A stretch of DNA of 64,000 nucleotides, taken from positions 79,300-143,299 of the forward strand of contig CAZNDZ010000001.1 of the NCBI GenBank assembly GCA_964572155.1, given 5' to 3'. Source of the stretch: an uncultured Planctomycetales bacterium. GTDB lineage: Bacteria; Omnitrophota; Gorgyraeia; Zapsychrales; Fredricksoniimonadaceae. Shown here in pieces: positions 27,650 to 48,380 of this stretch. The position numbers and the translations under genes were made by a program. The notes under the pieces were generated by a model. It ran no database searches. It was not told the DNA's origin and saw nothing but the letters and a program-made list of their open reading frames with translations. The first letter of the stretch is position 1. Every line of letters begins with the position of its first letter.

Positions 27650-28101
27650 CGATTAATCTCACTATAAAATATTTTAATAAGGGCAGAAATAACTAAAACA
27701 CCATATAACCACGCCCACCAAAAAGATGACGTCGGTGTAATGGTTAGCTGAAATACAAAACCAATTTCAAGAACTACTAAAACACCATGCATCAATATAT
27801 ATCGAATGGTGCCGGAAACAAATGCGGCACGACTGAAGCGTTCATATAAGAAAATTGTCCCAAGAATAAAGAATGCTATTGCTAATGCCACACCTGCCAT
27901 ATATAACTGCAGCTCACGCTCCCCCAAGAAACCTTTGCGGTAATGAAAGAAAATATCCGCAAGCGCAGGATCTGGTTTGAATGGAATATGAAATGAGATA
28001 ATGCCCAAAAGAATCAGTACTTCAATTGCGGATAATATCGCAACAGCAATAATCAAGATTGCTTTAAAGGGCTCGAAATTATGGAAAATGCTTTGTTTCA
28101 T
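27637..28101 (-). CDS. N-terminal 154-aa fragment of the split family-A gene (copy A2)
   Basis: IKIFYSEINRCFG aligns to the (K/H)IFWPE motif of full-length paralogs; different frame, 13-nt overlap with the 25883..27649 ORF. Confidence 0.5.
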   Translation of the reverse strand: MKQSIFHNFEPFKAILIIAVAILSAIEVLILLGIISFHIPFKPDPALADIFFHYRKGFLGERELQLYMAGVALAIAFFILGTIFLYERFSRAAFVSGTIRYILMHGVLVVLEIGFVFQLTITPTSSFWWAWLYGVLVISALIKIFYSEINRCFG

Positions 28102-30488
28102 CCTTGCTTATTCCTTTGCATGGCAACCAAGTATCGACCTTCTTTATATGGATGATACTCTCTTAAAATATAGTTGATGATACCCAGTATTTCCTCATGA
28201 TCCCTTGCATATGATGGTGGTAAAGTTTGATTTAAAAATATCTTCTCCATAAATATATACATGGGCTTTGTTTGTTCTAAATCTTGTATTGTACGCTGCA
28301 ACATCTGACGTGTATAAATATTGGTGTGTGGGAACGTGCGTATATTAAGTCCTCGTGATGAAATGATTGGAAAATAAAAGAAGAATGGTCGACGCTCTGC
28401 TTGGATCAACATTTCAATCTCAAAGCTGCTAAGCAGGGCAACCTTGTCTTTGGGTTTAGTTAATGACTGGATCAGCGTCGCATCTTCCTTAAAATTAAAT
28501 TCTTGATTGTATAAGGCTTTTAAATTGTCGTGATCCGGTACTTGCCATTCAAAAAATATTCGCTCTTCGGTTGTGCCCAAAGAATTTGTCTTTAATTTGT
28601 CGAATTCTTGAGCCCATGCATCTTGATGAAAGAAATATGGCCTTCCATCCTCGGGTAATCCATATGCAACCCGACGGTCCACCATAGGATTGCGATAGGT
28701 CTGCATATTCCATATATTAGGGAAAGCAACATACAAATGATTTGTCAGCAACATGATCGCTGATCCAGCAGCTAGAGCCCATGCTGTCAGAGCGCGTGTT
28801 CGCGTTGAAGTGATTTTTTCCATCCACAACTTGACCCAAAAGAAGATCACCCAAACCAGCGGGATCGCGCGCATGAAATAATTGTTCTCTAGCGACAATA
28901 CCAAATAGTGATGATACAAATTAAGCCCATACGCACATACGATGAGGGTGATCAGATCCTCTTTAACTCCTCGGCCAGCGAATAGGCGCATTGTTATCCA
29001 TATAAATGTGCCTAAATATACGATGGGGATAAAGCAACCGATCGCAAATTCCCAATACTTCCCATGCACCAAACTGTCCCAAAACCACACATCATAAAAA
29101 CCATTGGTAAACAAGCTGGGATAATACATCAAGTCCTTCCAAAACCCGACGCTTAAAACAGCATGGCCACAAAAAAACCAGAACACAAAAAATGCAGCGA
29201 TAACAGGAATTGCCATGATCCATAACGGCACCGAAGGTGTTGCTCTGACCGACGGGATAAAACGAATGGCCAAAATGTATGCAAAGAAACCAACCATCAG
29301 GTCAATGCCTGTTGTGGGCATAAAGAATATGGCGCCACCGATCGCCGCAGCCGCCGCAAATACATATGCCCTTGTGCCGTTTTTGATATGAAAAAATATT
29401 AATAACAAAATGGGAATATCCCAAAAACATCGCAACGGTGATCCATTGGGATAAATCGCGCTTACAGGATACGACAGCGCATAGAAGACTTGCCACTTGA
29501 TTGCCAATATCGTCGCTGCCAAAGCCAGAAGCACACTACCCAGCCATAAACGCAAACAGATATAAAATGCCACATAATAAAGGCACGATAACCACCAATA
29601 GACATTAAACACATTTAAATAATCAACCGCCCCAAAAAATTTTGAAATCCCAGCAACGAGCATGGGCATGCCCAGTCCATAAAATACATTTTGATCCACC
29701 CCCAAGACATTACCAACGCTACTCGCATAAGCGCCAGCCATGAGCATAAAATCAAAGTGATAATAATGTTCGCCAAATGCTGTTTTGGCCAATACGGCAA
29801 TTGGATCAATGATCGTCAACATTGAAACAATCCACAAGACGCCGCCTACAAAACCTATGGTTGCCAGCATTGGCTTGGATGACATCCAAACCAAAAAATC
29901 CACCCATGGCACAACAAATGCAGGCATCTTAAATGAGATGTTAGGTTTTATCTTTGTAAGTGACAACACACATGCCAACACAACCGACCATATGCAAAAA
30001 TATCCAACGGCATAAGCTGGCGCACGCAACCATAAGAATACCACCACTGCCATCACCGCAGCAGTGATAATGCCCTTTTGATGCAGGGCTGATCGACGAA
30101 GCATCATGGCAATTTCAGGATAAAATATTTTAGCTAGTATGGAACTTATGCCGACTAATCCCAATAAATGCCACGCCCATGTAGGCTGCGGAGCTTTTAA
30201 AATAAAAACGATGGCAAATATTTCAAGGAAAACAAAAGCAGCGCTCATGGTGACAAATAATGCAGAGCTTTTTATCTTTCTAAAACGCGTTGCTAATAAG
30301 ATCGCTGCAACAATAGCGAGACCAATTGCGGCATGATAGACCAACATCTTCCAATCTTTTTTGGTGATATGCATGTCTTTATCAAAGACCTGTGCCAACA
30401 TTGCCCGCTGATCCATCGGTACAAAAGACATAAGTGCGCCGAAAAGCAACGTGAACTCAACCGTTAACAATAAAATAACATTGGTCAT
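28098..30488 (-). CDS. family-A large polytopic membrane protein (copy A3)
   Basis: 796 aa; AKIFYPEIAMM, GEHYYHFDFMLMAG, YPNGSPLRCFWDIPILL, VALLSSFEIEMLIQAERRPFFFYFP, YIFMEKIFL, YHPYKEGRYLVAMQR. Confidence 0.7.
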   Translation of the reverse strand: MTNVILLLTVEFTLLFGALMSFVPMDQRAMLAQVFDKDMHITKKDWKMLVYHAAIGLAIVAAILLATRFRKIKSSALFVTMSAAFVFLEIFAIVFILKAPQPTWAWHLLGLVGISSILAKIFYPEIAMMLRRSALHQKGIITAAVMAVVVFLWLRAPAYAVGYFCIWSVVLACVLSLTKIKPNISFKMPAFVVPWVDFLVWMSSKPMLATIGFVGGVLWIVSMLTIIDPIAVLAKTAFGEHYYHFDFMLMAGAYASSVGNVLGVDQNVFYGLGMPMLVAGISKFFGAVDYLNVFNVYWWLSCLYYVAFYICLRLWLGSVLLALAATILAIKWQVFYALSYPVSAIYPNGSPLRCFWDIPILLLIFFHIKNGTRAYVFAAAAAIGGAIFFMPTTGIDLMVGFFAYILAIRFIPSVRATPSVPLWIMAIPVIAAFFVFWFFCGHAVLSVGFWKDLMYYPSLFTNGFYDVWFWDSLVHGKYWEFAIGCFIPIVYLGTFIWITMRLFAGRGVKEDLITLIVCAYGLNLYHHYLVLSLENNYFMRAIPLVWVIFFWVKLWMEKITSTRTRALTAWALAAGSAIMLLTNHLYVAFPNIWNMQTYRNPMVDRRVAYGLPEDGRPYFFHQDAWAQEFDKLKTNSLGTTEERIFFEWQVPDHDNLKALYNQEFNFKEDATLIQSLTKPKDKVALLSSFEIEMLIQAERRPFFFYFPIISSRGLNIRTFPHTNIYTRQMLQRTIQDLEQTKPMYIFMEKIFLNQTLPPSYARDHEEILGIINYILREYHPYKEGRYLVAMQRNKQG

Positions 30489-31900
30489 TTTCTCACCGCC
30501 ACCGCAACCAAGGTTGTTCCAAAAGGCATGGGGATTTTACCGTATAGAAAAACTTCTGCTTTAAGCAATGTTGTCATAAAACCATTGAATCCGGATACTG
30601 GATTCAAATACATATCAGTCGACGGTGACGCATCACGCGCGAATATCTTGTGCAATATACGCACGATGGCAACAGGAAGAAATGGCAGGCAGAATAAATA
30701 ATTTAACTGCTTGATCTCAAACCCTGCTTCTTCTAATAATGTCCTCACATCCCGTGGATTATATCTGCGCAAATGCGACAAAGCCTCATCATGGGGCCCA
30801 AATAAAAAACGGCACGCCGGTACTGTTATGATCAGTTGTCCATTTTCTTTGAGTGTATCTTTTAACTGACGAACCACCGCCCAAGGATTACGTGTGTGTT
30901 CAATGACATCTAATGACAAGACAACATCAAATGTATTGGCTTTAAATGGCAATTGATCTAAATTCCCACGCACCAAGCTTGTATGCCCATTGGCTTGACA
31001 AAACTTTAATGCCTGCGACGAGACATCAAGACCAACATATGGACCTTGGGCGCCTAAAAAACGCATATTATGCCCTGTCCCACAACCCGCATCTAACACC
31101 AATGGGTTTTTAACGTTAACGCATTGTTGTAAAATCTTTCGCATAAAAGCCGCCTTGGTCACAAACCACCAATGATGACTTTCATTCTCATACATCTGGG
31201 CAACATCTTTATCTGACATGTGCTCGTCCTGAGTATTAATCTTTGGAAAATGCCAGATGCGAATACATAAAACATCCCAAAACATTTTAAAATTCATGCT
31301 CAACTGTTTTCGCCTAGAACCATCAACCGTAATAACCTTGGTCTTATAACCTAACTGATAACTAACATAAGCCCATTCCACATCAAAACCATCATCCTCT
31401 AAATAAATACGCCCTAATAATCCCCCTAAATCTTTTTGCCGGATAATACGAAACATGCATGGCAAGAAACATAATTTATCAGCCAAACATGCAGCAACCC
31501 ATCGATCAAAAGCTTTATGTGGCACAACACTTGCCTTAACCCCCAAAACAACTTCTTTAGTATTATCAAATTTATCGACGCATGACAGCACATCGCTTAA
31601 GGACACGTTCAAATCTTCGATAACAACAAGAACACGACCCTTCGCATCAAACAATCCACGTTTAATAGCCGCGGCCCGTCCTAATCCTTTTGGTATTTCA
31701 AGGATACGTCCCGACTTAGGTTGTGTTGCTTTTGCATCATTGACGACAAAAACAATCTCATCACCACCATTCTTTTCACAGAGATCAACGAGTTGCTTAA
31801 TAATTGGTGCTTGCGCTTCAATGATGTTTAATAGAGGAACAATGAAGGAGCGCTCGATCTGCTTATTCATGCGCCCACCTATATAATTTTCGAAAGACAA
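30485..31900 (-). CDS. fusion protein: GT2-like glycosyltransferase N-domain plus class I SAM-dependent methyltransferase C-domain
   Basis: 471 aa; N-half IVFVVNDAKATQ...VVIEDL...DGFDVEW; C-half LDAGCGTGHNMRFL...FDVVLSLDVIEH. Confidence 0.5.
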   Translation of the reverse strand: MSFENYIGGRMNKQIERSFIVPLLNIIEAQAPIIKQLVDLCEKNGGDEIVFVVNDAKATQPKSGRILEIPKGLGRAAAIKRGLFDAKGRVLVVIEDLNVSLSDVLSCVDKFDNTKEVVLGVKASVVPHKAFDRWVAACLADKLCFLPCMFRIIRQKDLGGLLGRIYLEDDGFDVEWAYVSYQLGYKTKVITVDGSRRKQLSMNFKMFWDVLCIRIWHFPKINTQDEHMSDKDVAQMYENESHHWWFVTKAAFMRKILQQCVNVKNPLVLDAGCGTGHNMRFLGAQGPYVGLDVSSQALKFCQANGHTSLVRGNLDQLPFKANTFDVVLSLDVIEHTRNPWAVVRQLKDTLKENGQLIITVPACRFLFGPHDEALSHLRRYNPRDVRTLLEEAGFEIKQLNYLFCLPFLPVAIVRILHKIFARDASPSTDMYLNPVSGFNGFMTTLLKAEVFLYGKIPMPFGTTLVAVAVRK

Positions 31901-34460
31901 TGAACATGGCTATTAACGCCGCTATGACAGCAACAACAATCAAAATTCTTAAAGGACTATCTGGCCAATAAGTTAATAGAATTTGATGCTCACCCGCCTT
32001 TAATGGGGCACCGATAAAATAACCATTAATCTTTGAGATCGGCGTTCTTACCCCGTCAATGGTTAACTGCCACTTCGGATCATATGGCATATGCATGACC
32101 CACCAACCATCACGTTTGACTTGATAGGTAAATCCAAATTCATCTTGAGTGTTACGCCAAACATCGAGCAAAGCTTCTGGGGTGTCAACGCGCAACGACA
32201 ATGAATCCTGTTTGATGGGCGATGTTGCTGGCATTAAAACTGTTAAATATCCATCACGAACATTATTAACATCAAATGTAAACGGCGCAACCAAAGCCCC
32301 TTGTGCAGGGATTAAGGGTTGAGCGCCAATAGAGAGTTGCCATAGCTGAACATCGGGTGTAAATACTGTGGTTGATAGGTACCTTGGAAAGTCATCCGGC
32401 AGCGCCCACTGATATTCAATGTTTTTTTCTTTCTTTTGCATCTTAGCCAGATTTAACGAGAACATATATTCATTGCGTTTAAAATTCACTGGCAATGGCG
32501 CTGGTAAAATTAAACCATTGAAGTTTTTAACTTTATCTAAATTTTCCCCTTCTGCTTGAACAATCCGACGATCCAAATTTCCCGATAAGATTGTTGCAAA
32601 GTGATCTTGATTAGGCAAGATTGCTGCATCAGCCATAAACATGATCCGCCCATCTCTTCGGATGTATTGTTGAATATGCTTATCCTTGTTAATATCCTTA
32701 AACACTTTTAAACGTGGCACATAAATAGACGTGTCTCGCTCTAGGCGTAACACCAGCGGCATGTACTGATAAAACTGTCCGAACATGCCTTGGAACTCAA
32801 CGAGCAATGGGAATACCACCTGATCGTCTGTTCGATAAAAGAAGCGCACTGGCAAGATCCTAGGATTCTGATAATCTAAGATCATAGGTACGGGCGGTGT
32901 ATACATCGGGCTAAAAACACGGGGCTTAACCCGCAACCCATCCCAATAGGCACCATTCATGTCGACGCTGGGGGTATTGATGTATTGTTTAAGCACACTA
33001 AATTCAACCGCCATCACCATGGTAAACAATGCCAAGGCCAACCACACCCTCAAAGCAGCTTTGATTTGTTTGAGATCAAAGAGTATGAAGAATATAAAAA
33101 ATATAACTAACACCTTCATTGCATATACTTTCACCAAAGGATTGGCAATGTAGGCACAAGCAATGATAAGACTGCCTAAAACTCCCTTAATGAAATTGAT
33201 GCGTTTGGCGTAAATTTTGGTCGTATCTTTTTTAATGATGGCGATGCATGCATTGATCCCAAGACACACCGGAACAGCGAGCGTCAAATACCACAACAAT
33301 ACGGCATAGTGAAAACTGCGCACTAAAAAACAAAATGGATTGGTCAACGCATCTAGCCAATGCGCCCACATCATCCATCCCCCTTGATTCGAGGGTACAT
33401 TTAAAAAAGCCATCATGATGGCTGCTGTGATAAAAATTGGCTTATAAGGATGTTTTCCTAATATTAGACCAATCGCCGATAAAACCATGATGGTAATTCC
33501 TAAAAATATCCCGCTTAAGTACCAACCGCTTGTCGTAAAATCAACCGCATGTGAAAAGACTTGCTGGCTGGAGACAAAGTAACGCAATGGGTCGTGCATC
33601 ATCGCATGTGGATTATAAATGCGGCTAAAACGGCCTTCCGATCCCCCCAAACCTGTCCCCACCATCTCAAAATCACTTATCACATTTGTACCCCACCATA
33701 TCACGGGTAGAAAGATCAAGATCGCGACTAAACACGCCTGCGAAACTTTTAACCAATTGACCTTATCTTTCACCAAAGGCTTTTGCCGTCTCTGGAAAAT
33801 AAGCCAAATCATCAACATATCAAATAAAAATAAATGCACTGTCTGATAAAAGAAGCCTAGCCCAACATACAGTGCGTTGTTTGCTGCAAATAAAAACACC
33901 AAGATAGATGCGATGACCGCTTTAAATGATCGTGTGTCCCAGAAATAAACCAAACAAAACATTAAAAGTGGTAAATAATTGTAGACAGATGAAATACATA
34001 AACCGCCTAAATGGATCATGGCTATAGCGCAAAAACAATTGACCAAGATTGTTGTGATCAATGCAGTCAAACGTGATTTTGTCATATACCGCGTTAAAAG
34101 ATAAATCCCAAATGTCCGCAAGATTAAACCCAGACCATGGAATGCTAATAAATACCAGTGATGAAAGAACTGGGCAGGATCTTTTACAAACGGAGACAAA
34201 ACAACATACCCGAGAGCAATCACAAAATTAAACGGCGTATACAGTCCGACGGATAATTGGGCATATGATCCATTTAGTAAATCGTATCGATTAAACAGCT
34301 GGATATTGCCTTGATAAAACTGGCCAATTAAATAAAACACATATTGCATGGGGCCACAGGTTTCATGCCCTTGCACCAAACGCATGTCAAGCTTTGTAAA
34401 AAGCTCCGGATAGAGACATGCTGCAATAATAAGATTAATAACAATGCTTAAAAACAACAC
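31863..34460 (-). CDS. family-B large membrane protein (copy B1), tentatively YfhO-like GT-C glycosyltransferase
   Basis: 865 aa; N-terminal LYPELF...FYQGNIQLFNRYD, multi-TM core, C-terminal PYDPKWQLTIDGVRTPISKINGYFIGAPLKAGEHQILLTYWPDSPLRIL plus final TM helix. Confidence 0.6.
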   Translation of the reverse strand: MLFLSIVINLIIAACLYPELFTKLDMRLVQGHETCGPMQYVFYLIGQFYQGNIQLFNRYDLLNGSYAQLSVGLYTPFNFVIALGYVVLSPFVKDPAQFFHHWYLLAFHGLGLILRTFGIYLLTRYMTKSRLTALITTILVNCFCAIAMIHLGGLCISSVYNYLPLLMFCLVYFWDTRSFKAVIASILVFLFAANNALYVGLGFFYQTVHLFLFDMLMIWLIFQRRQKPLVKDKVNWLKVSQACLVAILIFLPVIWWGTNVISDFEMVGTGLGGSEGRFSRIYNPHAMMHDPLRYFVSSQQVFSHAVDFTTSGWYLSGIFLGITIMVLSAIGLILGKHPYKPIFITAAIMMAFLNVPSNQGGWMMWAHWLDALTNPFCFLVRSFHYAVLLWYLTLAVPVCLGINACIAIIKKDTTKIYAKRINFIKGVLGSLIIACAYIANPLVKVYAMKVLVIFFIFFILFDLKQIKAALRVWLALALFTMVMAVEFSVLKQYINTPSVDMNGAYWDGLRVKPRVFSPMYTPPVPMILDYQNPRILPVRFFYRTDDQVVFPLLVEFQGMFGQFYQYMPLVLRLERDTSIYVPRLKVFKDINKDKHIQQYIRRDGRIMFMADAAILPNQDHFATILSGNLDRRIVQAEGENLDKVKNFNGLILPAPLPVNFKRNEYMFSLNLAKMQKKEKNIEYQWALPDDFPRYLSTTVFTPDVQLWQLSIGAQPLIPAQGALVAPFTFDVNNVRDGYLTVLMPATSPIKQDSLSLRVDTPEALLDVWRNTQDEFGFTYQVKRDGWWVMHMPYDPKWQLTIDGVRTPISKINGYFIGAPLKAGEHQILLTYWPDSPLRILIVVAVIAALIAMFIVFRKLYRWAHE

Positions 34461-36679
34461 TATGTGCTCCCCTTTAATTTATAGGCAACCAAATATTTTC
34501 CTTGTGCAACAGGCTCATAGTTTTGAAAAACAAAATCCGTTACATACAACATGCTTGAATAATAAAAGTAGAACTGCTCTGAGAGTGGCCGCATGGTTAG
34601 AACGCGCTCAACAAAAACATACTGTGGCTTATCTTTCGACAATCGCTCAATGACTTTGTTTAATTGATCAATGGTATAAATACTGCTGCGCACCAATGTC
34701 CTTGATCGCAAAGGATGCGAAATCGCTAATGGGAAATAATAAAAATACGGACGCCGTTTGGCATCCATCAACATTTTAATTTCAAAACTACTAATCAATG
34801 CAACAGGCTCTTGAGGCCCAGTCAAACGGTCGATCAAATCAGCATCAACACCAAAATCTGATTCAGCTTTGTAATATAACAACAACGCGTCATCCGAGGT
34901 AAAATTACCTTCCTCAACAATGGCTTCATTGTTGTCTCCAAGAGAGTTAACAGGGACTTTCAACGCTTCATTATAACCGCGATATAAATGATTAAAATAC
35001 GGATCCCCACTGCTTAATGGTTGAGCAAATTGAACATCGGTCAAAGGATTACGTGTAAGGCTTAAACGATTTGGATAGGCAATAAAATTTTGATTCAGCA
35101 CAAGTAAAGCGATGCTCAATGACAACACAATGACATGAAACAACCGTCGCTGATAGCAACTGGCCCCAAACATAAGGATCATGACAAACGGCAAGGATAC
35201 GACGTAGTAGCTCGACGGACCTGAACGGGCTACATAGTAGTGATACACACACAACCCATAAACACCGATAACACAGGCAAAGATATGTCGCTGACTGATC
35301 TTCTTTAAAACTATGAGTGTCCCAACGACTAAAAGTGCCAATACATAGACAGCAGGCAAAACAAAGCCCATGAGACTGGCCAAGAATTGCCGGTCTTGTA
35401 AACCGCTGTAGATCGGCGTTAATCCAAAGCCGTTTAAGAAATACGCAACAAATTCTGAGGTGTTATTCCAAAATTGTTTTGTTGCTACGACTGGACCAAT
35501 AAAAATAAACATGCATACAATCATGACAATAGGCGGCACCATCAACACACCTAAATAGGCAATGCGTCGCATCAGGCCATTGTGCCATACCCAATAAAAA
35601 AGATAGAAAGTAAACATGGCAAGCAAATAAACACCATCGGATGGGATATAAAACAATTGCAAGCCGCATGCAACAGCGCCCATGATCAACCAACCCACAG
35701 AAGGACGATAGATATGCACTAAAATGGATATCATGACAAAGATATCAAACCAGTTGCGTAAGACAGTGGCGCTGCCATACGTAAATGCAAACGGGTAAAC
35801 GCCTGCATTAAACAATTGAAATTTTAAAACCAAGAATACACCCGCGGCAGCTAGAATCGTGCTCTTTAACCACGCACGCATGAGAAAGAACCAAAGGGTG
35901 TAATAGATGATCGCCCCCCATATCATCATTTGTAATCCGCTTTCATAGGTGAACCCACCAAAAAGCTGACCAAGGCTTCCAAATATAGCCCCCACCCCAA
36001 CCCCATACTGACTAATGATATCCCAATCAAGCCGGCTTCCGCTCACATAAGCCCACGCTGGCCCATAAATAAAACTATCATTATGATGGAATTGCTCTCC
36101 GACAAAGAACCGCGCCACCACGCCAGGTAAATTAGGAACATCGATGATCAAAAAAATAATGATCGGCATGACAAGCATTAAGGCTCGATCTAAAAAGACT
36201 TCGTTGTCTTTATCCTTACAAAAATGGCTGAGGGCATCAAGACAACGCTGTGCCCATGGCCATAATGCCTTGATTATGAAAGCTACAACACTTAAAAGAA
36301 GCAAAGCTCTCTTAGCTAGTTCAGGATGCGCGGCATAAACACTGATTTTAAAACAAGCTCCCAGCATTGCTACAGTGAGTAATCCTTCTATAACAATATA
36401 TCGCCGGATAGACGTAACTTTATTAACCCAAAAATACCAAAAGATCGCACTGGCAATCGTGCTTAAGATAAAGCATCGATATAACAATGTTTCCCATTCT
36501 GGACGTAATAATGACAGCCATTCGGGGACAATGGTTGCACTCAATGCCAAATGAGGCGTCTGCGCTGATAAGACCTGCGCTAAAATAATGGTCAGCTGAA
36601 TGCCGCACATCAAACTTAGCACAACCATTTGGATATAATCTTTATGCTTGTTCACGACGATACCCTTCCCAGAATACAT
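34460..36679 (-). CDS. family-A large polytopic membrane protein (copy A4)
   Basis: 739 aa; LRPEWETLLYR, IKALWPWAQRC, GEQFHHNDSF...IISQYGVG, YPNRLSLTRNPLTD, VALISSFEIKMLMDAKRRPYFYYFP, YVFVERVL, YEPVAQGKYLVAYK. Confidence 0.7.
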   Translation of the reverse strand: MYSGKGIVVNKHKDYIQMVVLSLMCGIQLTIILAQVLSAQTPHLALSATIVPEWLSLLRPEWETLLYRCFILSTIASAIFWYFWVNKVTSIRRYIVIEGLLTVAMLGACFKISVYAAHPELAKRALLLLSVVAFIIKALWPWAQRCLDALSHFCKDKDNEVFLDRALMLVMPIIIFLIIDVPNLPGVVARFFVGEQFHHNDSFIYGPAWAYVSGSRLDWDIISQYGVGVGAIFGSLGQLFGGFTYESGLQMMIWGAIIYYTLWFFLMRAWLKSTILAAAGVFLVLKFQLFNAGVYPFAFTYGSATVLRNWFDIFVMISILVHIYRPSVGWLIMGAVACGLQLFYIPSDGVYLLAMFTFYLFYWVWHNGLMRRIAYLGVLMVPPIVMIVCMFIFIGPVVATKQFWNNTSEFVAYFLNGFGLTPIYSGLQDRQFLASLMGFVLPAVYVLALLVVGTLIVLKKISQRHIFACVIGVYGLCVYHYYVARSGPSSYYVVSLPFVMILMFGASCYQRRLFHVIVLSLSIALLVLNQNFIAYPNRLSLTRNPLTDVQFAQPLSSGDPYFNHLYRGYNEALKVPVNSLGDNNEAIVEEGNFTSDDALLLYYKAESDFGVDADLIDRLTGPQEPVALISSFEIKMLMDAKRRPYFYYFPLAISHPLRSRTLVRSSIYTIDQLNKVIERLSKDKPQYVFVERVLTMRPLSEQFYFYYSSMLYVTDFVFQNYEPVAQGKYLVAYKLKGST

Positions 36680-39215
36680 ATACCAAACCCACGATGCTTA
36701 AAATTGCTGATAATAGCAGCATTGCCCTTAAAAGCGTCTGGGGCCAATATTGCAACAAGATGCGATGCTCACCTGATGTAAGAAAAGTTGTCATGTAATA
36801 TTTATTGGCACGATATAAATTTTGCGTTTTCCCGTCGACTTGAATTCTCCACTTTGGATCAAAAGGATACTGAAATACAATCCACCCATCCTTTGGTGCT
36901 TTATAATTAAATCCCCACGCATCGTGCGTATTACGCCAAACTGATGATATGTCATCAAATTGTTTCAATGTTAATTGTGCTTTCTTTCCTCGAATATCGA
37001 CATCAACTGGTAAACGTAAAACAACTTTTCCTTCTTTGACATTTCCAACATCAAATGAATAGGCATGATTTAAATAACCTTGAGCTGGCTCAAAACGTTT
37101 AGCATCAATCGTTAGCTCCAATGCAGCATAATCTTGCGTAAACAACGATGTGGCAACATGCTTAGGGAAACTTTTAGGCAAATCAATGAAATATAACATC
37201 GCATCGCCCCGCCTGATCTTTAGTGCCGCATCTACATCCAGTTCAAAATCTGTCTTCAGCTGTGTAGGCAAAGAAAGCGGCTTAACAGCGACATCAGGCG
37301 ACGTTAAATTATCGACGCTTTGATCAACCAACACAACCTGACGATCTAGATTATTTGCTAACAAATCACCCATACTTACTTTCGCTTGATCCATGGCATA
37401 AGGCGCAAAGAACACATTGCGCCCGTTTCGTTGCAAATATAATGCATTGGCTTGATCGTCCCCTAAATCTTTAAACGCCATTGGCCTTGGATCATAAATC
37501 CGACTCGGACGAACGTAACGCTCTGGGATTGGACAATAACTATAAAATGCGCCGTAAGCATTTTGATTAGTTTTTATCGGAGGATCCACTTCTGATAAGC
37601 TGGTCTTATAAAAAATGCGCTGAGGGAATATTTTTGGATTCTGATAATCCAAAATTTGTGGACGATCAGACATTGTGTTTTTATACACTTGCGCTTTTAA
37701 TTGTACCTGTTCATCAAGGTCCCAATTAATATAATGATGCAGCGCCCAGAAATCGACACCCAGCAACCCCACCCCGAGAACCGCCGCGACAAAAACATGC
37801 TTAAGGTACTTTGACTGGCTAAAAATCAATAAGAAGGCAATGATGAAAAACGATTGGATAAATAAATACCGCTTAAACCCCGCTGGACCAAAATACAGAA
37901 ATAATCCACAAAGCCCAGCAAAAATTCCGCACACAATAAGCACCCGATCCTGATAAATCTTTTCATGCTGTTTTAAAACAAGCGCCAACACGGCCTCTAC
38001 CCCTAACGCTATTAACGGCACAAGAGAGAAATACCACAATAAGGCTGACATATGAAAACTGCGATCTAAAAAATGAAATGGATTGGTCAATACGTTAATC
38101 CAATGGGCGAAGGCAAATATATCTTTGGGATTGGCTGGAACATTTAGACTAAATAAAAATACAGCTAGCCATATCACCGCATGTTTTAGCTTCTGTCGTG
38201 ATAGAACAGCCCCCATGACCACTAGAAAAAACGCACCAAAACCCACAAACATCCAATTTGAACCCCATCGTGTTTCTTGGTAATCAAAGGTCTTGATCAA
38301 TAATAAGAGCGGGTGTGCATATGAACGTCCTGGAAAATTAAAATAATCTTGTATACCCTGTCCTTGTAGACGCCCTTGAGTCCCATTCAAACCTGAATCA
38401 GCAATAAAAAAATCCGTCTTAAAATAATGATTCATCACGATGTACGGCAAAAGTATACCGCCGATTATTGCTAGGATGCTAAGCGAATAACGCCACGACG
38501 CAGGTTGAAATGTTTTTGGAATTTTTTTTAAATAAAAAATTGTCACAATAACCATGCTTATAACAAAAAAGTGCACCAGCAGATAAAAATAACTTAAAGC
38601 AAAGAACGGCGAATTAGCGATGGCAATCGCCATGACCAGCGCCGCAAGCAAAAAGTCTCTTAACTTATAATGTTCAAAGAAATTTATAATGAAATAAAAC
38701 ACCAAGGGCAAATAGCTGTAAAGAATATTGGTGTGCATGCCGCGATTTATCAATTGTGACGATAAGAACACATTAAAGAAAATTAGACTTACTACAATCG
38801 CCACTTTATTTTTTGTGAACTTACAGATCAACAAATACCCGCCTAGAATGCGTAACACCGCAGCCAAGGTGTAAAATCCTATGGAATAAACTTGATGTAG
38901 GAGTTCACCTGAAAAATGACTTAACGGACTGATCACAAGATAAACAGCAGCTAAAATCATATCTGCGATCGAATATAGCCCTGCTGTCATCAAATTATAG
39001 ATATTACTTAAATGGTCGAAGCGGTCATATAGCTGCACCCCGCCTTGAAAAAAATGCGACACCAGCATGAAAAGATTTTCTTCATGCAATTCCGTATCAT
39101 GAGACATCATGAATCGACGAGAACAATGGATGAATTGATCAGGATAAAGCAACGCTAAGATGACCATGGTCAATAAAAATGTCACGCCTATATCACGCCA
39201 CACGTGCTGTTTCAT
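36642..39215 (-). CDS. family-B large membrane protein (copy B2), YfhO-like
   Basis: 857 aa; LYPDQF...FFQGGVQLYDRFD; C-terminal PFDPKWRIQVDGKTQNLYRANKYYMTTFLTSGEHRILLQYWPQTLLR plus terminal TM. Confidence 0.6.
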   Translation of the reverse strand: MKQHVWRDIGVTFLLTMVILALLYPDQFIHCSRRFMMSHDTELHEENLFMLVSHFFQGGVQLYDRFDHLSNIYNLMTAGLYSIADMILAAVYLVISPLSHFSGELLHQVYSIGFYTLAAVLRILGGYLLICKFTKNKVAIVVSLIFFNVFLSSQLINRGMHTNILYSYLPLVFYFIINFFEHYKLRDFLLAALVMAIAIANSPFFALSYFYLLVHFFVISMVIVTIFYLKKIPKTFQPASWRYSLSILAIIGGILLPYIVMNHYFKTDFFIADSGLNGTQGRLQGQGIQDYFNFPGRSYAHPLLLLIKTFDYQETRWGSNWMFVGFGAFFLVVMGAVLSRQKLKHAVIWLAVFLFSLNVPANPKDIFAFAHWINVLTNPFHFLDRSFHMSALLWYFSLVPLIALGVEAVLALVLKQHEKIYQDRVLIVCGIFAGLCGLFLYFGPAGFKRYLFIQSFFIIAFLLIFSQSKYLKHVFVAAVLGVGLLGVDFWALHHYINWDLDEQVQLKAQVYKNTMSDRPQILDYQNPKIFPQRIFYKTSLSEVDPPIKTNQNAYGAFYSYCPIPERYVRPSRIYDPRPMAFKDLGDDQANALYLQRNGRNVFFAPYAMDQAKVSMGDLLANNLDRQVVLVDQSVDNLTSPDVAVKPLSLPTQLKTDFELDVDAALKIRRGDAMLYFIDLPKSFPKHVATSLFTQDYAALELTIDAKRFEPAQGYLNHAYSFDVGNVKEGKVVLRLPVDVDIRGKKAQLTLKQFDDISSVWRNTHDAWGFNYKAPKDGWIVFQYPFDPKWRIQVDGKTQNLYRANKYYMTTFLTSGEHRILLQYWPQTLLRAMLLLSAILSIVGLVYVFWEGYRREQA

Positions 39216-41224
39216 GAACCTATCCTTTTATAAGCGATCAAATATGTCCCCACCTTAAAAGGCATGTAATGTTGGCTGATGTGCTTAACTAATCCTGTCA
39301 ATGCGCTTTGGCCTTGTTGCTGTAACTCTTTCTTCTCAATGAAAATATACTGAGGTTTTTCTTTCTCAATTTGCGCGATGGTTTTCCTTAATCGGTCATA
39401 GGTATGTAAATACGTTAAACGCGCTTGAGGATTATCCATTAGCGACGATTCAATCAACGGTGAATAATAAAAGAATGGCGGACGATTGGCTTGCATGAGG
39501 ATTTTTGTTTCAAAACTACTGATGATAGCGATGCGTTCATTGGGCTTAGTCAGCACAGCAATAAAGGCGGCATCATCTTTAAAATCAAAACGTTGTTGAT
39601 AATAACCAACCTCTTCCTGCCATTTAAGGCCACTTAAATTCAAAATGTTGGGATAATAGGTAAATAAATAGCTCGTCATCAATATAGGCAACATGATGAT
39701 GGCCGCAAGCTTCCTAACATACTGTGGCAGAATTTCTTTAAGCCAAAGACATAAAATTAAAACAAGTGGGATGCAGACAGCGTAATAACTTGTCACACCC
39801 GAGCGATGAATAAAATAATGATATAAGCCCAAACCATATAGGCTTAAAAACAACGTGAAGTACTGCTTACGTAAAAAGCTGTACACCATATTGCCGGCAT
39901 AAAAAATGGGGATCATAAAGCCGATGATAAACGCAAAATATTGTTTTTCTTTAAGCCCCTCCGTCATAGGCAATGCGCCCCAACCTTGCACAAATAAACC
40001 TGCGAACTCAAATTGATGCTGCCAAAAGCTAGGTGTCAACACTGCGTGTGGTTGTAGGATCGCCAGAAAACAAAATGCTAAAAATAAAATCGCAGGAACA
40101 ACAATAAAGACTTTCTTCCATTGGGTTAGCAACAAATACGCGCCTAATGCTGCCATCAGGTAAACCCCAACATCAATCATCCAACATAAAGACAAAGCCA
40201 CTGAAACAACGCTCATATAAAACCATCGGCGCTGTTGTGTTTGTAAATATTGCCAAAATGCAAAAAAGAATATCACATCTGGCAAGTGACGCAAAGCCGT
40301 CGCACTAGGGTATTGCCAAACAAGCGGAGCTACTCCCCAATGAAACAACTGCAACTTAATGGCCAATAATGTTCCAAAAACCGCAACCGCTCTTGACCCC
40401 AACCAAAACACTATAAAAAAATACAGAGCCGCATAATACGCAAGATTAAGACCAATCAACAACGTTACAGCCCCTTGATAATTAAATTGATGCAGTAAAT
40501 TAAGGATGTTCGACAAGACAATAGGAAGGCCGACGCTATATTGACTGGTGATATCACTGTTTAACACTAGGTGCTTTAAATGCGCCCACCCTGGGGTCAT
40601 GAGCATGCTATCTAAATGATAGAATTGATCGTGCACAAACATACGGCCAAGAACACGATCCATTTGAAATGGAAATAACAACACAACCATCCCTACAAGA
40701 AATGCAAAATCCCAAGCCATAGGAAACGTTACGGATGCAAATGATACTCGACGCTCCCATAATTTAAGCATCACCTTCTCAATCTCTGGCCAAAAAATAT
40801 GAGCAAACACCGTCGCTATCATTACCCCATACATCATAACCACCGCCCATAACGGCGCGCCCCATACAAGGACTTTAAACACAAAAAAGATCTGCACAAA
40901 TATGCAACATCCGCTAAAAATGATGTAATTGATATAGCGTCGCCATAAACCTTCTTGGTCTATGTGATTGCGCAGATGCCTAACCCATAGGAACATCACC
41001 GCCATCGCTATGATCACAAAAAGCCTAAACAATAGCATTTCTCTCTCAGGGCGAACCTCTGGCAAATAAACAGGAAAAATTTTCGCGACAAAATCTGTTT
41101 TCTTGTAGGGAATGAATTGAATGGTCGCAGCAATGAAGATAAGGCATTGCAGGGCCTGCAAAAAGCTCATTGCAGCCAACGTCACAACATTAAGAAAGCC
41201 AAGTTCTTTGAAAATTTTCTTCAT
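39212..41224 (-). CDS. family-A large polytopic membrane protein (copy A5)
   Basis: 670 aa; LPEVRPEREMLLFR, AHIFWPEIEKV, HDQFYHLDSM...ITSQYSVG, LFHWGVAPLVWQYPSAT, IAIISSFETKILMQANRPPFFYYSP, YIFIEKKEL, YMPFKVGTYLIAYKR. Confidence 0.7.
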   Translation of the reverse strand: MKKIFKELGFLNVVTLAAMSFLQALQCLIFIAATIQFIPYKKTDFVAKIFPVYLPEVRPEREMLLFRLFVIIAMAVMFLWVRHLRNHIDQEGLWRRYINYIIFSGCCIFVQIFFVFKVLVWGAPLWAVVMMYGVMIATVFAHIFWPEIEKVMLKLWERRVSFASVTFPMAWDFAFLVGMVVLLFPFQMDRVLGRMFVHDQFYHLDSMLMTPGWAHLKHLVLNSDITSQYSVGLPIVLSNILNLLHQFNYQGAVTLLIGLNLAYYAALYFFIVFWLGSRAVAVFGTLLAIKLQLFHWGVAPLVWQYPSATALRHLPDVIFFFAFWQYLQTQQRRWFYMSVVSVALSLCWMIDVGVYLMAALGAYLLLTQWKKVFIVVPAILFLAFCFLAILQPHAVLTPSFWQHQFEFAGLFVQGWGALPMTEGLKEKQYFAFIIGFMIPIFYAGNMVYSFLRKQYFTLFLSLYGLGLYHYFIHRSGVTSYYAVCIPLVLILCLWLKEILPQYVRKLAAIIMLPILMTSYLFTYYPNILNLSGLKWQEEVGYYQQRFDFKDDAAFIAVLTKPNERIAIISSFETKILMQANRPPFFYYSPLIESSLMDNPQARLTYLHTYDRLRKTIAQIEKEKPQYIFIEKKELQQQGQSALTGLVKHISQHYMPFKVGTYLIAYKRIGS

Positions 41225-42552
41225 GAATATTTTATAAAATGCTCAGCATTACGCCGTGCCAAAGCCATGATGGTGGCTTGCGGATTAACCCCTGGCGTCG
41301 AAGGTAAAATACTCGCATCATTGATATAAACATTGTCAAAGCCATGTAATTTTCCAAAAGAATCAACCGCGGCTGTGCTTACATCTTCCCCCATAGGGCA
41401 AGAACAAAACAAATGGATCGTCGATAAATTTACTTGGGCAGAATGATAAATATTTTTAACACCTGCGGCTTTGAGCAATTCTTCCAACCGCTTTAATCCC
41501 AAATTTAACAAATCCCAATCCGCTTTAACCATGGGCAACTTAACCAAAGGTTCGTCGATAAATGGGATGGCTCTTACTTTCCCTGGGGTGGATGCCATGA
41601 TCAAGGCATAAAAGATGGCCCGACGGCGCCACGCATGTAAGTGCTCTTTTAAATCTTTGCGCTCGGCTAACCACAACGCCAAATGCGGCAACCCACTATA
41701 CGACCCTCCTAAAGAAATTTCCGGCTTAAACTCACTGACCTGATACACCGGCACACCTTCTTGAGGATCATTGATGTCACGGTCGAATTCTGCGACCACA
41801 CGCACAGCAGGGTGCATGCGCAAATTATTGCCAATATTTTTTTTGATGCCGCTACGACGTAATAGCAAAGGCGTTTGAATCGCCCCTGCACAAATAAACA
41901 CATGATTAAATTTAATCTTTAATAATCGGCTATTGGCTTCCGTCGCCCTTTTCCCTGAAATATACAAACGCCCGACGCGTGATTGTGGGATCAAACGACC
42001 GCCGGCTTTGATAAATTGCGGAATGGCCGTCTCACTCATGGATTGCTTTTTATTGGTCGCATGGTCCCATAAACGCGGGACTTCGCCAGCTTGCCATCCA
42101 AGCTTTGCTGCACCTTGCTGCAAGATCGCTGATGCGGCAGGCAATTTTCCCTTGATGCGTTCCACTTTTAACATCTGCTCATTCTTTAAGAAAAATGACT
42201 CCATCACTTCAGCAGAAAAATTTTTAAGCTTATATGTTTGTCCCCAATCATCCAATGTCTTTGGCAATGGCCGATGGTATAACCCTGCGTTGATCTCACT
42301 TGCACCACCAACACAACAGCCTTCCAAATATGAAACCTTAGGACTTCCGACGCTAACCGCAAGTCCACCATGACGATACTTCAAATCCATTTCTTCCAGG
42401 GAATACGCCGGGGCTTGGTCGATGGCCACATGCTTGCCTTCTTCTAATAAAATGACGTCCCGCCCAGCTTGAGCCAACAGCATCGCTGTCACCGCACCGC
42501 CTGGGCCAGAACCGATCACCAAACAATCACATGTTAATTTTTCTTTGGGCAT
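41221..42552 (-). CDS. GMC-family FAD-dependent oxidoreductase
   Basis: 443 aa; N-terminal Rossmann CDCLVIGSGPGGAVTA; GMC C-terminal signature HLFCSCPMGE...GFDNVYINDASILPSTPGVNPQATIMALA. Confidence 0.7.
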   Translation of the reverse strand: MPKEKLTCDCLVIGSGPGGAVTAMLLAQAGRDVILLEEGKHVAIDQAPAYSLEEMDLKYRHGGLAVSVGSPKVSYLEGCCVGGASEINAGLYHRPLPKTLDDWGQTYKLKNFSAEVMESFFLKNEQMLKVERIKGKLPAASAILQQGAAKLGWQAGEVPRLWDHATNKKQSMSETAIPQFIKAGGRLIPQSRVGRLYISGKRATEANSRLLKIKFNHVFICAGAIQTPLLLRRSGIKKNIGNNLRMHPAVRVVAEFDRDINDPQEGVPVYQVSEFKPEISLGGSYSGLPHLALWLAERKDLKEHLHAWRRRAIFYALIMASTPGKVRAIPFIDEPLVKLPMVKADWDLLNLGLKRLEELLKAAGVKNIYHSAQVNLSTIHLFCSCPMGEDVSTAAVDSFGKLHGFDNVYINDASILPSTPGVNPQATIMALARRNAEHFIKYS

Positions 42553-42875
42553 AGGGTAAAATATATGAACAATGTCATCTTAGTAAAAAAAGCTGCAACA
42601 TCACGGCAAGAGCCAATCTTACTCTCCTGCCACTGACGCAATTGTTTTTGTCGACGGGTAAGATCTTGATTTTCAAAGAAAGAAGCCGCACCAAATACGC
42701 CAGACCAATTAAAAACATAAATCACCATGATCATAAGCGTCCGCAATAAGGTCGGCATGCCCATGATCTTGCGGTATAATTTCTCTGCGGTTTGAACAAC
42801 GATGTGATGTTCTAAATCGCTGACATAGGCGGGACACAAAATGCCTTGTACAATACAGAAAATGATCTTATCCAA
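42534..42875 (-). CDS. small hypothetical membrane protein
   Basis: 113 aa; one or two hydrophobic segments; sits between the GMC gene and B3 with overlaps typical of coupling. Confidence 0.3.
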   Translation of the reverse strand: MDKIIFCIVQGILCPAYVSDLEHHIVVQTAEKLYRKIMGMPTLLRTLMIMVIYVFNWSGVFGAASFFENQDLTRRQKQLRQWQESKIGSCRDVAAFFTKMTLFIYFTLCPKKN

Positions 42876-45369
42876 CTGCTCTCCTAACTGCCCAAATCAC
42901 CACGCCCATGCTCAAAAGAATGGACAATGGTATTAAAACTCTTAATGGTGAATTTGGCCAATATTTAAACAAGACTTGATGTTTCCCTGCTGATATAGGA
43001 ACGCCTAAAAAATACCCATTAACTTTAGATATCGCTGCACGTTTGCCATCAATCCACACTTGCCATTTTTCATCATAGGGATAATGCGCAATCAACCAAC
43101 CATCTGTGCTTGCTTGAAACGTAACCCCAAGCTGATCACTCGTATTACGCCAAATATTTAAAATATCCCCGCTTTGTACTAAGCGTAATGTTAACTTTAT
43201 ATTGCCCTTAAGGTATCCCTTTGGCAACCCAAGTACTAAGTATCCATCTTTGACATTATTAACATCAAAGGTAAATGACTCTGCAATGGCACCTTGAACT
43301 GGTGTAAGCAAGCTTTCTAACCCTTCTAATATAAGCCGATTACGATCTTGTGTAAATATCGCTGTTGATTCATAGCTTGGAAAACTCTTTGGTAATTTAA
43401 TGGCATATAGCACAGGATTTCCATTTTTAATCATTTGCGCTTTGCTTAATGGTATTTGAAATTCACGGACACGCGCCGGTAACATTTGACGTGGACCTTC
43501 AGGTGTACCGCTAGCTAAAACTAAAAATCGTTGGTCTTGAGCCAATGCTTGATATAACCTCTGATTATTTCCCCAATCTTGGTATATTTTTGGTCTTGGT
43601 TCATAAATATCCGCATGATCAGCAAATCGCTCTAAGGGCATATACGAAAAGAAATACCCATAATGACCTTGGAATGTATGCATATGCGGATCCGTGGCTG
43701 AAGGCAGGATGCGGAAATATTCTCGGAAAGGTAAAATTTTAGGATTCTGATAGTCGACTAACAAAGAACGCTGATCTTCAAACCCATCGTATACGCTTGG
43801 CTTAATATGTCGTCCATCTTTGATAGATAAGTATCCACCACGATTAGCAAATTCACCATGATATTGATTGTTGTCATAATATTGTTTTAATGCAAAAACA
43901 TCCACCCCCATAAAAACACAAAACAAGAATATGCCAACATGTTTGCGTGCTACTCCATTTAAGTCGATTAACTTTTTCTGGCAAACATAAACATAAAGAA
44001 TAGCTACGCTTAACATCAACAACATATACGTTTTAAACTCAAATGACAAAAACCACGCTGATAGAAAAAGTAACATCAGATAAACCGCTAAAAGCACCCT
44101 TAGCCGTATCTGACTTACACGGTCATGCAGCATGTCATAGCCCGATTGCAAACCAAATGCAACTAAAGGGAAAATTAAGTATGGCAATAACAAAACAGGC
44201 ATGTGATAGCTTCGCAATAAAAAACTAAACGGATTCGTTAAGGCATTGATCCAATGAGCGACGGACAAAAGACCCGTGTCATTGAGCGGCACATTGGTCA
44301 AGAGCACAAGTGTGCTAGCTATGGCAAAAACATATTTGGCTCGAATTTTTGAACAGATGAGGCCCATGAAAATCAACAAGACAACAGCAGCACCCCAGAA
44401 TATCCAAGATTTTTCCCAAGTTGCATTTGTAAAATCAATCAACTTTTCAGGCAACTCTGTTAATGGCAAAATTGTTTCGCCTTTTGGAGCAAAATACTTC
44501 TGTGGATTAAACATCCTGCTAAATCGACCTTGTGTGCCGTTTAAACCAGAACCTTCCACAAAGAAATCTTTTCCGAGTATATTGAAAAACATCACGCTCG
44601 GCAAAATAATGCACGCGCCTATAACAATGGTAATACCTATGGCTTTAAGATTTTTTGGTGCAACCATTCCTGTAAATGAAATGTTGCGACGATGAAAAAT
44701 GATTCCATAAATCAAAGCAACCATCATTAAGAAATGAACATTTTGATAAAAATATCCAGCACCCAACAAGGGATTCCCTGCGATGGCCACGATTAACAAT
44801 AGTACAAAACCAATAAAATCACGCGTTTGAAATTTCTCGACATAACTAATGATGAAATATGCCAAAAAAGGGAAATAACTATATAGATTGTTTGCAACAA
44901 GGCCTAAATACATCGACGACGATAAGAATGTGTTAAGTATCACTAGCGCAATGATGATCATGCCGTCATTAAGTTTAAATTTACGTAATAACACATAACC
45001 GCCAATGAGCCGCAATAAAATATTAAAGGCTGGGTGAACAAGACTAAAAATATGTTGGAATGCTTCGCCTGGGTTTGATTGAAATGGTAATAAAACAATC
45101 CCCACAAGCGCTGTTAAAATATTAGACAATGTATACAGGCCATGCCCCAAATGGTTGAACGCAAAGGTCATCCCATCATATCGGTCAAATATTTGCAATC
45201 CGCCTTGAAAGAAATTAGAAATCAGAAAAAATACGCTTTCATATGGGATCTCAGCGTCGTGGTGCCATAACATGCTTTGATTGTGAAACCAGAAAAGGTC
45301 GCTAAATATCACCATGCAAGCGCACAAGGTAAATGCAAAACTTAAAGTAATGATCTTTAATGCATTCAT
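42868..45369 (-). CDS. family-B large membrane protein (copy B3), YfhO-like
   Basis: 833 aa; NFFQGGLQIFDRYD; C-terminal PYDEKWQVWIDGKRAAISKVNGYFLGVPISAGKHQVLFKYWPNSPLRVL plus terminal TM. Confidence 0.6.
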   Translation of the reverse strand: MNALKIITLSFAFTLCACMVIFSDLFWFHNQSMLWHHDAEIPYESVFFLISNFFQGGLQIFDRYDGMTFAFNHLGHGLYTLSNILTALVGIVLLPFQSNPGEAFQHIFSLVHPAFNILLRLIGGYVLLRKFKLNDGMIIIALVILNTFLSSSMYLGLVANNLYSYFPFLAYFIISYVEKFQTRDFIGFVLLLIVAIAGNPLLGAGYFYQNVHFLMMVALIYGIIFHRRNISFTGMVAPKNLKAIGITIVIGACIILPSVMFFNILGKDFFVEGSGLNGTQGRFSRMFNPQKYFAPKGETILPLTELPEKLIDFTNATWEKSWIFWGAAVVLLIFMGLICSKIRAKYVFAIASTLVLLTNVPLNDTGLLSVAHWINALTNPFSFLLRSYHMPVLLLPYLIFPLVAFGLQSGYDMLHDRVSQIRLRVLLAVYLMLLFLSAWFLSFEFKTYMLLMLSVAILYVYVCQKKLIDLNGVARKHVGIFLFCVFMGVDVFALKQYYDNNQYHGEFANRGGYLSIKDGRHIKPSVYDGFEDQRSLLVDYQNPKILPFREYFRILPSATDPHMHTFQGHYGYFFSYMPLERFADHADIYEPRPKIYQDWGNNQRLYQALAQDQRFLVLASGTPEGPRQMLPARVREFQIPLSKAQMIKNGNPVLYAIKLPKSFPSYESTAIFTQDRNRLILEGLESLLTPVQGAIAESFTFDVNNVKDGYLVLGLPKGYLKGNIKLTLRLVQSGDILNIWRNTSDQLGVTFQASTDGWLIAHYPYDEKWQVWIDGKRAAISKVNGYFLGVPISAGKHQVLFKYWPNSPLRVLIPLSILLSMGVVIWAVRRAVG

Positions 45370-45372: not shown

Positions 45373-45768
45373 TTACCTGCCTGCCAACTGAGATAATTTG
45401 ATCTTATATTGTTGGGTATTGTATTCAGACAATTGCAAGGCCATGGATAATTTCTTAACCGCGGAGGCAACATCGCCACGAGCTTCGTCTTCCAGTGCCA
45501 TATGATATAGCGCGTCGGTATTATTATTCATCGACATGGCGGTTAAAAATTGATTTTGTTTTTCCATGCTCGCCACTTGCCCCTTTAACGTGGATAACAT
45601 GGCATCCGTCTTGCGATAATCTGCCCTAAAAACAAGCACCATGGCCAAATACACCGCCACGACCACAATCACGGCTTTCACCCCAAAATCCAACCACGTT
45701 TTCATTAATGTGTTCATACATTCCCTTTCATGTGTTTGTGCCAAATCTGCAGGGTTAACAATCCCCAC
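45373..45768 (-). CDS. small single-TM protein with coiled-coil/TPR-like tail (true start possibly 45717)
   Basis: 131 aa ORF; hydrophobic helix AVIVVVAVYLAMVLVF; overlaps asnB at its 5' end unless an internal start is used. Confidence 0.3.
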   Translation of the reverse strand: MGIVNPADLAQTHERECMNTLMKTWLDFGVKAVIVVVAVYLAMVLVFRADYRKTDAMLSTLKGQVASMEKQNQFLTAMSMNNNTDALYHMALEDEARGDVASAVKKLSMALQLSEYNTQQYKIKLSQLAGR

Positions 45769-47594: not shown

Positions 47595-47600
47595 AGAGGA

Positions 47601-48377: not shown

Positions 48378-48380
48378 GGA

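Follow-up and report, generated by a model that had tools for sequence, protein, structure and literature searches.

A probable Omnitrophota gene array with distant YfhO relatives and a second, uncurated GT-C-fold family

Gene content of the locus

The stretch of DNA analysed here (64,000 nucleotides of contig CAZNDZ010000001.1, referred to as the window) contains ten open reading frames (ORFs) of the glycosyltransferase C (GT-C) type, three of a family termed B and seven of A-type, the split pair A2n/A2c being taken as one. The B genes lie on the minus strand as B1 (31863-34460, 865 aa, GTG start), B2 (36642-39215, 857 aa), and B3 (42868-45369, 833 aa), exactly where a preliminary description of the same DNA had placed them, and are full-length paralogs with 31-33% identity from end to end and more than 150 invariant columns, which is far beyond chance. 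They are embedded in a single co-directional block consisting of minus-strand ORFs only (~22.2-60.2 kb), in which gaps or overlaps amount to at most 11 nt at 27 of 28 junctions. Internal promoter- or terminator-like sites between 28 and 47.9 kb were as numerous as expected from shuffling, with no excess. The minus strand from ~22 to 60 kb looks like one long operon-like gene string. We consider it fairly probable that the region encodes a battery of independent, periplasm-facing GT-C transferases that build or decorate a surface glycan from lipid-linked sugars.

Four of the GT-C-type genes follow each other in transcription order as A5-B2-A4-B1, and the overlaps of 1-38 nt noted before were confirmed as 4 nt (A5/B2), 38 nt (B2/A4), and 1 nt (A4/B1). 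Further up, B3 is followed by a 113-aa ORF (42534-42875, minus strand, one hydrophobic segment, no Pfam match), a GMC-family flavin adenine dinucleotide (FAD) oxidoreductase gene (41221-42552, minus strand, 443 aa, GMC_oxred_N and GMC_oxred_C), and A5. B3 is thus transcribed ahead of the GMC gene and not preceded by it as had been described, and no A gene adjoins it. The plus strand has a strongly positive AT skew (0.10-0.23) over the GT-C array (24000-42000 of the window), in keeping with hydrophobic residues being encoded by T-rich codons on the minus (coding) strand.

Three paralogs related to the C-terminus of YfhO

The proposed membership of B1-B3 in the YfhO family of GT-C proteins was borne out, with similarity at the C-terminus only. 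All three exceed the Pfam gathering cutoff of PF09586 (28.5 bits), scoring 46.0 (B1), 37.3 (B2), and 53.7 bits (B3), and the model is matched by all 24 members of the B family. The match is confined to profile positions 761-833 of 835 (residues 770-834 in B1), and none of the three proteins matches the full profile including the N-terminal membrane domain. Likewise, alignment of B with three full-length YfhO proteins by hhalign reached a probability of 98.5%, but over 62 C-terminal columns only. As the similarity is limited to the last ~65 residues, B represents a very divergent clade and not a typical YfhO. Two extensions toward canonical YfhO were discarded: permissive hhalign gave a co-linear alignment but added no score, and a profile search brought in six extra proteins aligned over only 6-11% of B. 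The NCBIfam search with B yielded nothing except a sub-threshold tail match for B3, whose C-terminal 60 residues resemble the PgfM1 model (E 6e-7, 27.8 bits vs a cutoff of 1400), while PDB sequence and profile searches with B3 and the B family profile gave no match. A word-indexed search of 5.8 billion clusters retrieved 24-30 relatives of B.

In the structure model of B3, a multi-helix membrane domain (residues 1-503) precedes a beta-rich domain (~520-805) and a final transmembrane (TM) helix (809-832). The modelled membrane domain has a GT-C fold, and its continuation by a large, presumably extracytoplasmic domain and a terminal TM helix corresponds to the YfhO architecture. Two aspartates in the loop after the first TM helix of B, D38 and D65 in B3 numbering, are nearly invariant. 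The N-terminal motif FFQGG.Q.(F/Y)DR(Y/F)D, originally ascribed to all three proteins, is exact in B2 (residue 55) and B3 (residue 53), while B1 reads FYQGNIQLFNRYD. The C-terminal block that had been reported is clearly conserved in B1-B3, with B2 departing by NKYY and a T for G, but its pattern as typed contained a spacing error of one residue and literally fits none of the three. The sequence comparisons and the model support B1, B2, and B3 as putative paralogous YfhO-related GT-C transferases.

A GT-C-fold family without curated model

The grouping of A and B as subfamilies of one family was rejected, as hhalign gave a probability of 1% and the two are not detectably homologous. On the minus strand, the array holds A5 (39212-41224, 670 aa, 665 bits against the family A hidden Markov model (HMM), motif FVHDQFYHLD), A4 (34460-36679, 739 aa), A3 (28098-30488, 796 aa, 809 bits, motif FGEHYYHFD), the pair A2n (27637-28101, 154 aa, family A profile positions 10-149) and A2c (25883-27649, 588 aa, positions 169-751, 720 bits), At413 (24649-25890, 413 aa, 123 bits), and, as its last gene, A1 (22533-24656, 707 aa, 836 bits, motif FIGEQAHHLD). 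Within the two families, paralogs share 26-35% identity (A5 has 30% to both A1 and A4 in two alignments). A further member, A0 (53069-54931, minus strand, 620 aa, 500 bits over positions 10-751, no Pfam match), is found 8 kb further upstream than B3 and has a methyltransferase gene on one side and two genes for short-chain dehydrogenases/reductases (SDRs) on the other.

The structure model of A4 likewise predicts a GT-C fold, in which a ~150-aa N-terminal helical module is followed by the GT-C core with a GEQFHHxD loop motif and by a C-terminal alpha/beta domain. Within the acidic motif of family A, D201 is invariant and E195 nearly invariant (A4 numbering). Both residues directly follow helix 157-179 of A4, and FMGDFFHDWD of A2c directly follows the first TM helix; a positive-inside reading of the sequence suggests that these first-loop acidic residues may be periplasmic. 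Pfam searches with 41 family A members returned no credible match, the best being that of a single member to an unrelated acyltransferase model (E 0.0027) and all others lying above E 0.01. No family A protein matched NCBIfam, none of the curated GT-C sequence families (PMT, PMT_2, ArnT-like, Emb/Aft, STT3, and others) was hit significantly, and PDB sequence and profile searches with A4 and the A family profile came back empty. At E <= 0.001, 1,251 cluster representatives among 1.84 billion belong to family A, which, going by its predicted fold, is a sizeable GT-C-fold family without a curated model.

Two variants within the array deserve attention. At413 has neither the C-terminal domain nor the acidic loop motif, where it reads FSEWRAFGLT, and is probably non-catalytic. 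In many loci, a gene of this type immediately precedes a full-length A, and protein P0101 (1166 aa) joins a module of the truncated type to a full-length A in one chain, suggesting that At413 is a non-catalytic partner of A1. A2n corresponds to the N-terminal helical module and overlaps by 13 nt with A2c, which comprises core and C-terminal domain without this module. A sequencing frameshift was rejected as the cause because three other loci (L005/L038 and L035) retain the gene split in the same way, so A2 is a real split gene. Elsewhere, the N module is duplicated inside one protein (P0079, P0088, P0096, P0104). The split and the truncated A might also be taken for decaying redundancy after recent tandem duplications, several copies being non-functional and gene order being without functional meaning. 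We regard such decay as highly improbable: the paralogs are old, given their low identity, all ORFs are intact, both odd forms are conserved in other genomes (and the truncated type fused in P0101), and every full-length copy has kept the conserved motifs.

Gene order across related loci

The survey drew on genomes for 39 A-centred loci and on metagenomes for 46 B-centred ones, with all ORFs scanned by the HMMs of both families; as the loci were chosen around A or B genes, co-occurrence estimates from them are biased. Counted over 86 related loci, unique adjacent pairs were A-A in 95 cases, A-B in 27, B-A in 20, and B-B in 5, with 184 A vs 76 B genes. Array compositions vary, e.g. B-A-A-B-A-A-A-A (L056), A-A-A-A-B-A-A-A (L017/L075), or six A genes in a row (L026). 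Approximately 15 B loci have no A in the available sequence, including one from Nitrospinaceae (L043) as well as L044, L073, and L082, none of these four having an A within 10 kb of B; for the latter two, 10 kb is available on both sides. The closest homologs of the window come from Omnitrophota metagenome-assembled genomes (MAGs), with orthologs of A5, A4, and the GMC oxidoreductase at 59-79% identity in L004 and L005. As every one of the closest relatives is an Omnitrophota MAG, the window most likely stems from an Omnitrophota genome.

The A5-B2-A4-B1 order is common only to these closest relatives, L004 and L005. Orthologs of B2 are likewise found only there (64% and 52% identity), its placement between A5 and A4 was observed in this lineage only, and in L006 A5 adjoins A4 with no B2 between them. 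B1, on the other hand, is better conserved than any other gene of the array, its orthologs in diverged loci having 61-74% identity vs 34-45% for the neighbouring A. In seven of eight readable loci, the gene immediately upstream of the B1 ortholog is an A, which in five belongs to the A4 orthogroup. An A4-type gene followed by B1 is the only A-B adjacency that recurs across diverged genomes. The strict alternation of A and B that had been proposed holds for four genes only in a window with seven A-type vs three B genes, and appears from the comparison of loci to be a lineage-specific gene order rather than an indication of obligatory A-B pairs.

From this alternation, the preliminary description had derived A-B pairs acting as functional units, i.e. 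a heteromeric transferase or a transferase plus polymerase. Taken further, A and B would form obligatory heteromeric GT-C complexes like Pmt1-Pmt2 or EmbA-EmbB, at least as A4-B1, with translational coupling setting the stoichiometry. The overlaps at A4/B1, B2/A4, and A5/B2, the order kept in L004 and L005, and the frequent position of an A, mostly of the A4 orthogroup, ahead of B1 would all suit such complexes, and heterodimeric GT-C enzymes are present among the structural matches of our models (6p2r, Pmt1-Pmt2; 7bvc, EmbA-EmbB). However, the overlaps, real as they are, do not mark A-B junctions specifically, as they are equally frequent at other junctions and tight packing prevails at 27 of 28 junctions of the operon. 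With overlaps operon-wide and no excess of promoters or terminators, translational coupling, if real, belongs to the whole operon. Moreover, A outnumbers B in the window (7:3) and overall (184:76), A-A adjacency dominates, B3 has no A neighbour, B homologs exist without A, and L006 lacks the intervening B2. One-to-one co-occurrence and adjacency of A and B across genomes, as obligate pairs would show, were not seen in the surveyed loci. No A-B fusion (Rosetta stone) was found in 221 collected proteins, whereas A-A' fusions exist, the only other rearrangements there being N-module duplications. A itself has a predicted GT-C fold with an acidic motif. Finally, B1 retains 61-69% identity while the A upstream of it drops to 34-40%, so that no parallel divergence is visible. 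General pairing is therefore not upheld and obligatory heteromers are unlikely; what survives of the idea is the A4-type gene upstream of B1 in five of the eight readable loci.

Neighbouring genes for donor synthesis and tailoring

Two genes for family 2 glycosyltransferases (GT2, Glycos_transf_2) accompany the independent transferases that we envisage. One (50562-51284, minus strand, 240 aa) has its best PDB sequence matches in the Dol-P-Man synthase 5mlz and ArnC, and the other (21435-22181, plus strand, 248 aa), which is divergently oriented at the array end, in GtrB 5ekp, ArnC, and dolichol-phosphate mannose synthase (DPMS). Dol-P-Man synthase, ArnC, and GtrB are polyprenyl-phosphate sugar synthases, and both GT2 genes are candidates for this activity. 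Either may encode the nearby partner GT2 that provides the C55-P-sugar in a YfhO-type three-component system.

Upstream of B3, a tailoring block (45714-50713, minus strand, Pfam assignments) encodes an AsnB-type amidotransferase, an SDR, an amine-oxidase-like flavoprotein, and a TylF-type O-methyltransferase. The TylF-type ORF as listed (49805-50713, minus strand) has a GTG start and 302 aa and shares 152 nt with the GT2 gene upstream of it; as the gene call on the identical contig L002 is 256 aa, its true start is probably further downstream. Counting these, Pfam recognises three SDRs in all, methyltransferases of the TylF, FkbM, and class I types, and a HAD-like protein around the GT-C genes. 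Between B1 and A3 lies a gene for an S-adenosylmethionine (SAM)-dependent methyltransferase (30485-31900, minus strand, 471 aa, Methyltransf_11 E 2e-19 at residues 269-358). Its class I SAM methyltransferase domain spans residues 252-398, and its N-terminal half is weakly GT2-like (E 0.045, residues 50-124). The listed TTG start results in a 38-nt overlap with B1, and an ATG ten codons downstream would leave 8 nt. Two small membrane proteins of 190 aa and 171 aa (51281-52328, minus strand, 2-4 hydrophobic segments, no Pfam match) have orthologs with 42-50% identity in L011, L014, L017, and L056, where they immediately precede the GT-C arrays.

The 113-aa ORF (46-59% identity) and the GMC gene are conserved as a pair in L004-L006. 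FAD-oxidoreductase neighbours like those of B3 are kept by two distant B genes. The first, from Nitrospinaceae (L043), is situated near genes for GMC, UbiA, two epimerases, and a HAD protein; the second, P0012, has no A neighbour and is flanked by AsnB, SDR, and amine-oxidase genes. The GMC/UbiA/epimerase/HAD set recalls the decaprenyl-phospho-arabinose pathway and, by this analogy, hints at lipid-linked sugar modification. At the other end of the array, a tRNA_bind gene comes after A1, a position that it also has in related loci, and the window below 21 kb carries housekeeping genes. Just downstream of the array and adjoining an RNase T-like exonuclease gene, a stand-alone 292-aa protein (20100-20978, minus strand) matches LPG_synthase_C only, i.e. 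the C-terminal domain of phosphatidylglycerol lysyltransferase.

A predicted pathway for surface glycan assembly

The paralogy within both families, the match of B to the C-terminus of Pfam YfhO, the GT-C folds of both models, the acidic motifs, the gene-order statistics, and the donor-synthase-like GT2 genes form the basis of our interpretation. A and B would then be two GT-C families that are unrelated in sequence and work in the same pathway. In the cytoplasm, the GT2 enzymes would load sugars onto polyprenyl phosphate, and the oxidoreductases, SDRs, amidotransferase, and methyltransferases would tailor these sugars. The lipid-linked sugars would be flipped across the membrane by a component that was not recognised in the window. 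Every GT-C enzyme, acting on the outer side of the inner membrane, would contribute one kind of sugar or one linkage to a surface glycan or glycoconjugate. Of the ten GT-C-type ORFs, the three B enzymes and those of family A that are catalytically competent, five or six in number, may carry out this final step. Membrane topology, lipid-linked donors, sequential action, and the nature of the acceptor are inferred from the genes and the two models.

Several points weigh against this interpretation. Pfam scans of the window, the small ORFs of the operon included, recognised no flippase of the GtrA/GtcA or Wzx type; a GtrA/GtcA flippase could be encoded elsewhere in the genome, and the 190-aa and 171-aa membrane proteins are possible flippase or accessory candidates. 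The membrane domain of B has no sequence similarity to canonical YfhO that hhalign can detect, so a YfhO-like activity follows from fold and architecture only. Structure models cover A4 and B3, and the other paralogs were assigned by homology. The recurrent A4-B1 adjacency fits a conserved pathway core and a specific A4-B1 partnership alike. The assignment of the window to Omnitrophota, moreover, draws on the closest homologs and not on marker genes.

A different acceptor is conceivable as well. In the streptococcal Pgf system, PgfM1 is YfhO-like. The structural neighbours of the A4 and B3 models comprise STT3B, PglB, Pmt2/4, DPY19, AftA, AftB, AftD, and EmbA/B, and the protein glycosyltransferases among the best of them (STT3B, PglB, Pmt2/4, DPY19) would be in line with a GT-C battery that glycosylates surface or giant secreted proteins in the manner of PMT, PglB/STT3, or Pgf. 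The weak PgfM1 match of the B3 C-terminus, far below the cutoff, and the very long surface-associated proteins encoded by Omnitrophota (bioRxiv 10.64898/2026.06.07.730766) point in the same direction. On the other hand, no gene for an acceptor protein is evident in the operon, the acceptor is not readable from sequence, and ten paralogs with many sugar-tailoring enzymes fit a complex heteroglycan better. This alternative, which differs from our interpretation in the acceptor only, seems quite unlikely to us.

Comparison with known systems

The YfhO/CsbB/GtcA three-component glycosylation offers a precedent for the predicted surface glycan pathway (PMC5836110, PMC8035078). As in YfhO of Bacillus subtilis, Staphylococcus aureus, and Listeria, where CsbB, GtcA, and YfhO act in teichoic-acid glycosylation, B scores above the PF09586 gathering threshold, and the B3 model combines a multi-helix GT-C membrane domain with a large beta-rich domain and a C-terminal TM helix. 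Further, DPMS/ArnC/GtrB-like GT2 genes are part of the operon, and CsbB is a synthase of the same type. In contrast to that system, the similarity of B is restricted to the last ~65 residues with a membrane domain that cannot be aligned, a single operon carries three B paralogs, a GtrA/GtcA flippase was not recognised in the window, and the host is Omnitrophota-like. To our knowledge, teichoic acids are not expected in the Planctomycetes-Verrucomicrobia-Chlamydiae (PVC) group, Omnitrophota included.

By analogy, the closest functional counterpart would be mycobacterial arabinan assembly by the Emb and Aft enzymes (EmbA/B/C, AftA-D), which use decaprenyl-phospho-arabinose. Both have several GT-C paralogs, partly in tandem, and would share action at the outer face with polyprenyl-monophosphate sugar donors, as predicted for the window. 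AftA, AftB, AftD, and EmbA/B are structural neighbours of our models, FAD oxidoreductase and SDR genes are located nearby as DprE1/DprE2 are there, and the Nitrospinaceae B locus carries UbiA, GMC, epimerase, and HAD genes. No UbiA-type gene was present among the ~52 window ORFs scanned against Pfam, a set that left out about ten ORFs including 60263-63981. The differences are that neither A nor B is homologous in sequence to Emb or Aft proteins, that ten GT-C-type ORFs are gathered in a single operon, and that another phylum is concerned.

Streptococcus mutans Pgf (PgfS, PgfM1, PgfE, PgfM2) likewise encodes a GT2 together with two membrane GT-C proteins, one of them YfhO-like, and is linked to B3 by the weak tail match to the PgfM1 model. 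With a score so far from the cutoff, B3 is not an equivalog of PgfM1, and the numbers and families of the GT-C proteins differ. Compared with the GT-C superfamily in general (ArnT, PglB/STT3, PMT, ALG, PIG-M), family A fits no Pfam or NCBIfam GT-C model and is set apart by a separable helical module of ~150 residues at the N-terminus and an alpha/beta domain of its own at the C-terminus. Our literature search found no paper describing either family, the arrays, or GT-C enzymes in Omnitrophota. The type of system is already known, and what is new are the families, the scale of their amplification, and the host phylum.

Implications

GT-C enzymes carry out extracytoplasmic steps in the synthesis of envelope glycans and glycoproteins and are drug targets in mycobacteria. 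The Omnitrophota are uncultured and in part dependent on hosts, and the chemistry of their envelope has hardly been characterised. Both families described here have expanded in this phylum to form arrays that reach eight or more genes, and the YfhO clade has diverged so far that only its C-terminal tail is recognisable. Annotators gain a handle on a new GT-C family (A), and experimentalists gain defined residues and gene pairs (A4/B1, At413/A1, and the split A2), while the unsupported idea of an obligatory A-B heteromer is corrected. A bolder and unlikely view goes beyond the battery of independent transferases. Here, an assembly line of some ten GT-C enzymes, with polyprenyl-monophosphate sugars as its sole supply, would let Omnitrophota make an entire complex surface heteroglycan extracytoplasmically, and the strategy of mycobacterial arabinan synthesis would have been invented independently. 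Its foundation would be family A, a GT-C family not recognised before and equipped with a separable N module, together with a conserved heteromeric core of A4-B1 (and At413-A1), and differences in the glycan from lineage to lineage would come from the variable A paralogs.

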